From the NCBI GenBank assembly GCA_964350315.1, contig CAYGJD010000003.1:15187-79186 (forward strand): a stretch of DNA of 64,000 nt, in the 5' to 3' direction. Source of the DNA: an uncultured bacterium (GTDB lineage Bacteria > Chlamydiota > Chlamydiia > Chlamydiales > 2-12-FULL-49-11). Made by a program: the position numbers and the translations under genes. Below, in pieces: positions 2,261-2,420 of the stretch (the first letter of the stretch is position 1; each line of letters opens with the position of its first letter). The notes under the pieces are model-generated. The model searched no databases. It was not told the DNA's origin and saw nothing but the letters and a program-made list of their open reading frames with translations.

Positions 2261-2420
2261 CCGATATTGAGCAGAGATCTTGAGTGAAGAAATGCAATAT
2301 CTTTTGTTTCAGGGTCTTCCAAAAAGCGCAGTCATATTTTTAAATATGTCGAGCATTTTTGAATGCGTTGAAGCACAATAGATTGCGTTTATTTACCATG
2401 AGATCTGCTCAATGTTGGTT
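2261..2420. mobile_element. 160-bp imperfect-palindromic MITE-like element, copy 1
   Basis: It differs at 4 of 160 positions from 59702..59861, in the same orientation. Its ends are inverted (CCGATATTGAGCAGA ... TCTGCTCAATGTTGG) and it has a central palindrome CATATTT-TT-AAATATG. TTAAAG flanks it on both sides (2255-2260 and 2419-2424). Confidence 0.8.

Follow-up and report, generated by a model that had tools for sequence, protein, structure and literature searches.

A probable palindromic MITE in two near-identical copies, each with its own target-site duplication, in the chromosome of an uncultured chlamydia-like bacterium

Small non-coding repeats that fold into hairpins are known from several bacterial groups. 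The ERIC (IRU) elements of enterobacteria and the Correia (NEMIS) elements of Neisseria are 100 to 160 bp long, form long imperfect hairpins when transcribed, and lie between genes, often in 3' UTRs or within operons, where they are reported to affect the processing and stability of mRNA; Correia elements are cleaved by RNase III. Both are hosted by Proteobacteria, duplicate a TA target and reach copy numbers of tens to hundreds. The Rickettsia palindromic elements (RPEs), which are palindromic repeats of 100 to 150 bp in an obligate intracellular bacterium, are often found as in-frame insertions within protein-coding genes and show no clear terminal inverted repeats or target duplications. 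Miniature inverted-repeat transposable elements (MITEs) are routine in many bacteria, and chlamydial mobile DNA has mostly been discussed in terms of full insertion sequences. In Cardinium, a strain-specific MITE derived from IS982 is described (PMC9769881). Two studies on chlamydiae describe full insertion sequences only (PMC9723776, PMC13229535), and no report of a chlamydial MITE was found in the searchable literature.

The window, that is, the whole 64-kb stretch analyzed here from a source contig of 162 kb, is chromosomal DNA of a chlamydia-like bacterium, its relatives being MAGs with the annotation Chlamydiae or Chlamydiia. It contains two copies, A and B, of a palindromic repeat, which we consider, with a probability of roughly 85%, to be a MITE, i.e., a non-coding DNA transposon of 158 nt. 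The features on which the argument depends are as follows.

1710 to 2258, + strand: conserved hypothetical gene, 182 aa, no Pfam family; left flank of copy A; its orthologue is the convergent neighbor of the UPF0137 gene in all relatives
2255 to 2260: left target-site duplication of copy A, TTAAAG; identical to 2419 to 2424 and holding the TAA stop at 2256 to 2258
2261 to 2418, + strand: copy A, probable palindromic MITE, non-coding, 158 nt
2261 to 2280, + strand: left terminal inverted repeat of copy A, CCGATATTGAGCAGAGATCT
2333 to 2348: center of symmetry and hairpin tip, CATATTT TT AAATATG
2401 to 2418, - strand: right terminal inverted repeat of copy A, reverse complement CCAACATTGAGCAGATCT
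2419 to 2424: right target-site duplication of copy A, TTAAAG; native to the UPF0137 gene as its last codon (Leu) and TAA stop, and conserved in the closest relative
2419 to 3198, - strand: gene for a chromosomal pGP6-D-like protein (Pfam UPF0137), right flank of copy A; followed by ParA at 3210 to 3998
58113 to 59624, - strand: nnrD/YjeF-family gene, downstream of copy B; abuts gpsA in relatives
59697 to 59701: left target-site duplication of copy B, TTTAA
59702 to 59859, + strand: copy B, in the gpsA-nnrD spacer, in the same orientation as copy A
59860 to 59864: right target-site duplication of copy B, TTTAA; separated by 2 nt from the gpsA stop (TTA, 59867 to 59869)
59867 to 60871, - strand: gpsA (glycerol-3-phosphate dehydrogenase), upstream gene of copy B

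Copies A and B form direct repeats separated by 57.4 kb and embedded in unrelated flanks, and they differ at four positions (2319 C/T, 2367 G/A, 2398 A/C and 2416 T/C, copy A given first), which corresponds to an identity of 97.5%; the same four positions account for the 4 differences in 160 that the original prediction had given for a second copy at 59702-59861. That prediction had placed copy A in a 160-bp interval, 2261-2420; the last two bases (TT, 2419-2420) belong to the right target-site duplication, and the element itself is the 158 nt of 2261-2418. The similarity between the copies is bounded abruptly, starting at CCGAT on the left and ending on the right just after the terminal GG, except for a common TT. 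The left end of copy A reads CCGATATTGAGCAGAGATCT and the right end AGATCTGCTCAATGTTGG; the latter, when reverse-complemented, reads CCRACATTGAGCAGATCT and is the inverted-repeat partner of the former. Terminal inverted repeats of 15-20 nt are thus present in each copy, and the 15-mer CCGAYATTGAGCAGA occurs at both ends of both copies, as expected from the inverted-repeat ends proposed earlier. When up to two mismatches were allowed, this 15-mer gave five matches in the window against 0.15 expected from shuffled sequence; four of these are the element ends, and the fifth (62435-62449, with 2 mismatches) shows no similarity beyond the match itself. A sensitive blastn search of the 64-kb window yielded neither additional nor degenerate copies, and no other hairpin element of the same kind was found within the window. 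The longest open stretch in any frame of the element is 36 codons, in agreement with the earlier claim that it contains no ORF.

Each copy is flanked by a direct duplication of its own, 6 bp long (TTAAAG) at copy A and 5 bp long (TTTAA) at copy B. Across the window, an interval of 158 nt is flanked by identical 6-mers at 4.1e-4 of positions and by identical 5-mers at 1.6e-3, and it is very unlikely that both flanking duplications arose by chance. In both copies the element begins with CCG and ends with CGG, the preceding base being G at copy A and A at copy B and the following base T at both. The reconstructed target sites read ...TTATTAAAGATATG... and ...TTGTTTAAAGTTAAC..., and TTAAAG is common to the two. 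The unequal length of the duplications counts against the identification as a MITE, and this difference needs either a transposase with a variable stagger or an ambiguity of one base at an end of the element. As had been noted from the letters alone, TTAAAG stands on both sides of copy A, at 2255-2260 and 2419-2424, and the left hexamer holds the TAA of the + strand ORF 1710-2258 while the right one holds the TTA stop of the - strand gene 2419-3198.

The ancestry of this arrangement can be approached through relatives. A protein search with the UPF0137 sequence gave the protein of the window itself (NCBI, on the 162-kb contig) and relatives at 82-87% identity, comprising nine orthologous loci (L149-L153 and L159-L162) with six protein variants. 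In 9/9 loci the genes are ordered methyltransferase, ParA and UPF0137, the last facing a convergent gene of 176-185 aa, which in all nine is the orthologue of ORF 1710-2258 at an amino acid identity of 47-59%. The junction between UPF0137 and this neighbor is unusually tight and variable in length: the 3' ends overlap by 20-30 nt (L159 829-858, L160 10749-10768) or lie 5-21 nt apart, the spacers being +5, +5, +15, +15, +21, -30, -20, -20 and -20 nt. The element is absent from the orthologous site in all nine loci, which represent six related lineages, and from the approximately 530 kb of relatives' DNA as a whole. The original prediction had named the same sequence at orthologous loci, combined with only two copies genome-wide and no related insertion sequence, as the outcome that would mark an ancient structural element rather than a mobile one, and the loci turned out to be empty (9/9).

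The closest relative, L159, has a single ATTAAAGAAAAGCATCGA exactly where the window, once the element and one TTAAAG are removed, reads ATTAAAGATATGCATCGA; with more of the context, L159 reads ...GATTCATTAAAGAAAAGCATCGAC... and the window treated in this manner reads ...TTTTTATTAAAGATATGCATCGAT.... When the empty site is reconstructed in this way, it can be aligned to the ATTAAAGA..GCATCGA that L159 has once, and also to L160 and L149. These relatives are only about 71% identical in DNA, and the comparison is accordingly one between species and not a within-species polymorphism. Given the single target in the closest relative, the TTAAAG pair is a genuine duplication of the target, at a site that is otherwise empty. 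Over the last codons of UPF0137 (LVDAFL* against LIDAYL*), every base of the window can be aligned with one of L159, and for this reason the right TTAAAG is the native leucine codon and stop of the UPF0137 gene and the left TTAAAG its duplicate. Before the insertion, the convergent genes shared overlapping stops in TTAA, just as had been suggested, and the site restored by removing the element matches the single TTAAAG of L159. Because the duplicated hexamer held both overlapping stops, each gene keeps an intact stop and neither protein is changed. Copy A is a textbook-quality case of an element that lands between two genes with both proteins unaltered.

Copy B is found in a different setting. 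In the two nearest species-representative genomes (L003 and L004, gpsA 75-76% identical), the same order of a UDPGP-like gene, gpsA and nnrD is observed, and gpsA and nnrD overlap or are separated by 4 nt, compared with 242 nt in the window. Copy B sits inside a gene pair that is tightly coupled in these relatives. Besides the element, the spacer contains 77 nt of extra non-coding DNA (59625-59701) that has no counterpart in L003 or L004.

The existence of two direct repeats in one stretch of chromosome also raises the possibility that they are not transposons but att-like or composite-element boundaries of a single island spanning 2.4-59.7 kb. The common orientation of copies A and B and the tRNA genes included in the interval would be compatible with such an island, but the gene order across each of its supposed junctions is preserved in relatives without the repeats, on the left as the orthologue of the 182-aa ORF facing UPF0137, ParA and the methyltransferase, and on the right as UDPGP, gpsA and nnrD. 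This conserved synteny across both junctions contradicts the 57-kb island. Moreover, the interval carries housekeeping genes, i.e., those for type III secretion, SUF, ribosomal protein S2, EF-Ts and a penicillin-binding protein, it contains no integrase or transposase, and the duplication flanking each copy is different. We regard the island as almost certainly the wrong explanation. The footprint of non-autonomous transposition that had been proposed is supported by the empty orthologous sites and by the duplication that copy B has of its own.

With regard to its other contents, the window contains three tRNA genes, the chromosomal pair of ParA and pGP6-D-family (Pfam UPF0137) genes, the type III secretion families YscJ, FliH, FliP and Bac_export_1, SUF and rml genes, and genes for ribosomal protein S2, EF-Ts and a penicillin-binding protein. 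Several repeats of other kinds were observed. A direct repeat of 79 nt (57113-57191 and 57540-57618, 90% identical) is found at the beginning of two neighboring small ORFs, 57182-57529 and 57609-58133, which have no Pfam family; it covers their start codon, the ribosome-binding site and the region upstream. A related start region, GGAAATATCATGGAA, is found again at 26553 and 28321. Three tandem paralogous ORFs of 573, 632 and 772 aa occupy 26562-32682; they resemble one another at the 5' end (repeat families D2 and D6), lack a Pfam domain and may represent a lineage-specific expanded protein family. A pentapeptide-repeat protein of 263 aa is encoded at 41135-41926 by about 25 tandem 15-nt units, and an equally long ORF that is open on the other strand, 41116-41904, is probably an artefact due to these units. 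Three tandem 39-nt repeats at 21678-21809, within ORF 21402-22553 (383 aa, no Pfam), encode an ETPEVAVE-like peptide. Finally, the Legionella major-outer-membrane-protein family (PF05150) is represented by two genes, 13666-14772 and 43889-45070, and members of this family also occur near the orthologous locus in L159 and L160.

Independent assemblies provide a view of the age of the insertions. The insertion on the gpsA side is also present in the same species as assembled independently from two further samples (Logan), and both assemblies encode the identical GpsA protein. One of the contigs (ERR3534985_90170; L001 5939-6022) ends exactly at the center of the palindrome, and the other assembly contains the full element with strain-level differences of its own. 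The copy B of this second strain matches copy A at 2 of the 4 positions at which the copies in the window differ, so the changes at these positions are private to copy B of the window, and the ancestral copies consequently differed at only 2 of 158 sites. The copies are thus 97.5-99% identical, in contrast with the approximately 71% identity between the coding DNA of the window and that of relatives, from which it follows that the copies are young and the insertions recent and specific to this lineage. An alternative would be that the palindrome is an ancient, vertically inherited intergenic sequence lost in all the sampled relatives, or that it was created by assembly. The relatives are indeed fairly distant at about 71% DNA identity, so that parsimony alone leaves loss open, and one Logan contig does stop at the center of the element. 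Ancient inheritance, however, requires independent and precise deletions in six lineages, each of which left a single target hexamer, and it agrees poorly with copies that are 97.5-99% identical next to DNA that is only about 71% identical to relatives; an artefact is excluded by the independent assemblies, one of which contains the full element. We therefore consider this alternative highly improbable compared with recent insertion of a MITE. The contig that ends at the palindrome center suggests that the hairpin or the repeat breaks assembly graphs and that such elements are under-represented in MAGs. Elements of this kind matter in practice because they break short-read assemblies and can alter the coupling of neighboring genes.

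The most conspicuous property of the element is its fold. As first noticed, the two halves are imperfect mirror images around CATATTT-TT-AAATATG, with the center at 2333-2348. The halves are about 72% complementary, and because of this a single imperfect hairpin is formed over the whole length of the element. The + strand RNA has a folding energy of -64.3 kcal/mol (z -8.2) and the - strand RNA one of -38.4 kcal/mol (z -4.7), and in neither case was a shuffled sequence equally stable; folded as DNA, the element gave -29.3 (z -5.9). The greater stability of the + strand RNA is due to its 7 G-U pairs, compared with 2 in the - strand RNA, a split that is not significant. The asymmetry between the strands was considered as a sign of selection at the RNA level and rejected, both for this reason and because the genes around copy B yield the strand that folds more weakly. 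A scan with Rfam 15 assigned no family to the element, the best scores being around 20 bits against thresholds of 50-140 and belonging to weak, generic hairpin models of the miRNA-precursor type; the only matches in the window that passed the threshold are the three tRNAs. A promoter or an intrinsic terminator within the element was likewise rejected, as neither a T-tract terminator nor a promoter at consensus level is present.

These results bear on the idea that the repeat is a structured RNA, for instance a small RNA gene, a 3' UTR stabilizer or a bidirectional terminator, which was copied between loci and selected for its fold. Such a role would fit the very strong fold (z -8.2), the far stabler + strand RNA (-64 versus -38 kcal/mol) and the position of both copies directly 3' of a gene. 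Yet the flanking genes of copy B are both on the - strand, so that read-through would yield the RNA that folds more weakly, the 7:2 split of G-U pairs lacks significance, and no Rfam family, T-tract terminator or promoter consensus corresponds to the element. Above all, an RNA selected for its fold leaves the terminal inverted repeats and the target duplication at an otherwise empty site unexplained. We judge this idea improbable as an account of the repeat itself, while a secondary effect at the RNA level, exerted by a MITE after its insertion, is possible and compatible with the main explanation. Any cellular effect would be expected to come via the long hairpin in RNA. When transcribed in the 3' UTR or operon RNA of its neighbors, the imperfect hairpin of about 75 bp might affect processing or stability, or form a barrier between the transcription units on either side. 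As in the case of ERIC and Correia elements, it could be a target of RNase III or an element of stability or termination.

The assignment to the MITEs is based on the small size, the absence of an ORF, the terminal inverted repeats and the target-site duplications, together with the single target at the empty site of copy A; that only two copies are visible, 57 kb apart and both in the 64-kb window, counts against it. In the mechanism that we propose, a transposase encoded elsewhere in the genome would recognize the CCGAYATTGAGCAGA termini and integrate the element by a staggered cut at AT-rich, TT(T)AAAG-like sites, and repair would then duplicate 5-6 bp. The enzyme would likely be of the DDE type and act in trans. 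That the element is complementary from end to end suggests that the element originated from two similar subterminal regions of a parent insertion sequence, or from the inverted duplication of one of its ends, either of which would produce end-to-end palindromy. Two known routes of mobilization were rejected. PATE and REP elements derived from IS200/IS605 have neither terminal inverted repeats nor a duplication and follow a fixed tetra- or pentanucleotide at the 5' side; the present element has both the repeats and the duplications, and the bases immediately 5' of the copies differ (AAAG at copy A and TTAA at copy B), which argues against insertion of the IS200/IS605 type. MITEs derived from IS630/Tc1-mariner, such as Correia and RUP, duplicate TA, and the duplications here are 6 and 5 bp long.

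The parent was sought in several collections. Pfam scans of the 58 ORFs of the window detected no transposase or integrase domain, consistent with the earlier statement that the window encodes no transposase. The exact 20-nt end gave no match in 185,579 species-representative genomes and none in metagenome contigs. A gapped pattern of paired ends gave five matches in metagenome contigs, all in one coding gene of a gut bacterium that is otherwise dissimilar, and these are attributed to chance, as are more than 120 single matches of the 15-nt end in viral contigs, which had neither paired ends nor further similarity; this pattern is too short. A blastn search with the element against plasmids returned no match, and a concatenate of its open segments from all six frames matched none of 5.8 billion protein clusters at E <= 1. 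The window's own proteins have no close relatives at strain level in that collection. A 33-aa ORF starting with TTG inside the element is not on record, and the idea that an arm of the element derives from the N-terminus of a parental transposase received no support, since no frame gave a protein match. Across the species-representative genomes, the metagenome contigs, the plasmids and the protein clusters, these searches gave no further copy, no relative and no autonomous insertion sequence with matching ends, and the lack of such a partner counts against the assignment. As a lead only, we take IS1380 or IS1634 to be a possible type of parent. In the family table of ISfinder, the ends of IS1380 begin with CC and those of IS1634 with C, and both families have variable target duplications of 4-6 bp in AT-rich targets. 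The present element resembles them in its CC ends, short duplications of 5-6 bp and AT-rich targets; it differs in that neither a transposase gene nor a full-length insertion sequence with its ends was found.

It is well supported that the copies represent a new, lineage-restricted family of MITEs, which is nevertheless a known kind of element. Young copies imply that a transposase was recently active in this uncultured lineage. A more specific picture, in which the copies belong to a recently active orphan MITE family of Chlamydiota that inserts at TT(T)AAAG next to stop codons and whose hairpin works as an insulator or processing site at the RNA level, is tentative and, taken as a whole, doubtful. 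If it were true, a still-active transposase would exist in an obligate intracellular lineage and might serve as a genetic tool.

The hairpin elements of other bacteria offer an instructive comparison. In contrast with the ERIC and Correia elements, the present element has different terminal sequences, a duplication of 5-6 bp instead of TA, and 2 copies visible in the window. It differs from the RPEs in being intergenic and in possessing terminal inverted repeats and target duplications. Unlike bacterial MITEs in general, in which palindromy is confined to the termini, it is palindromic over its whole length. In contrast with the IS982-derived MITE of Cardinium (PMC9769881), no parental insertion sequence was found for the present element, which is unrelated in sequence to anything in the collections searched. 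What it shares with bacterial MITEs such as that of Cardinium (PMC9769881) is its small size, terminal inverted repeats, non-coding nature, target duplication and intergenic position, as well as its occurrence in more than one near-identical copy and its confinement to one host-associated lineage.
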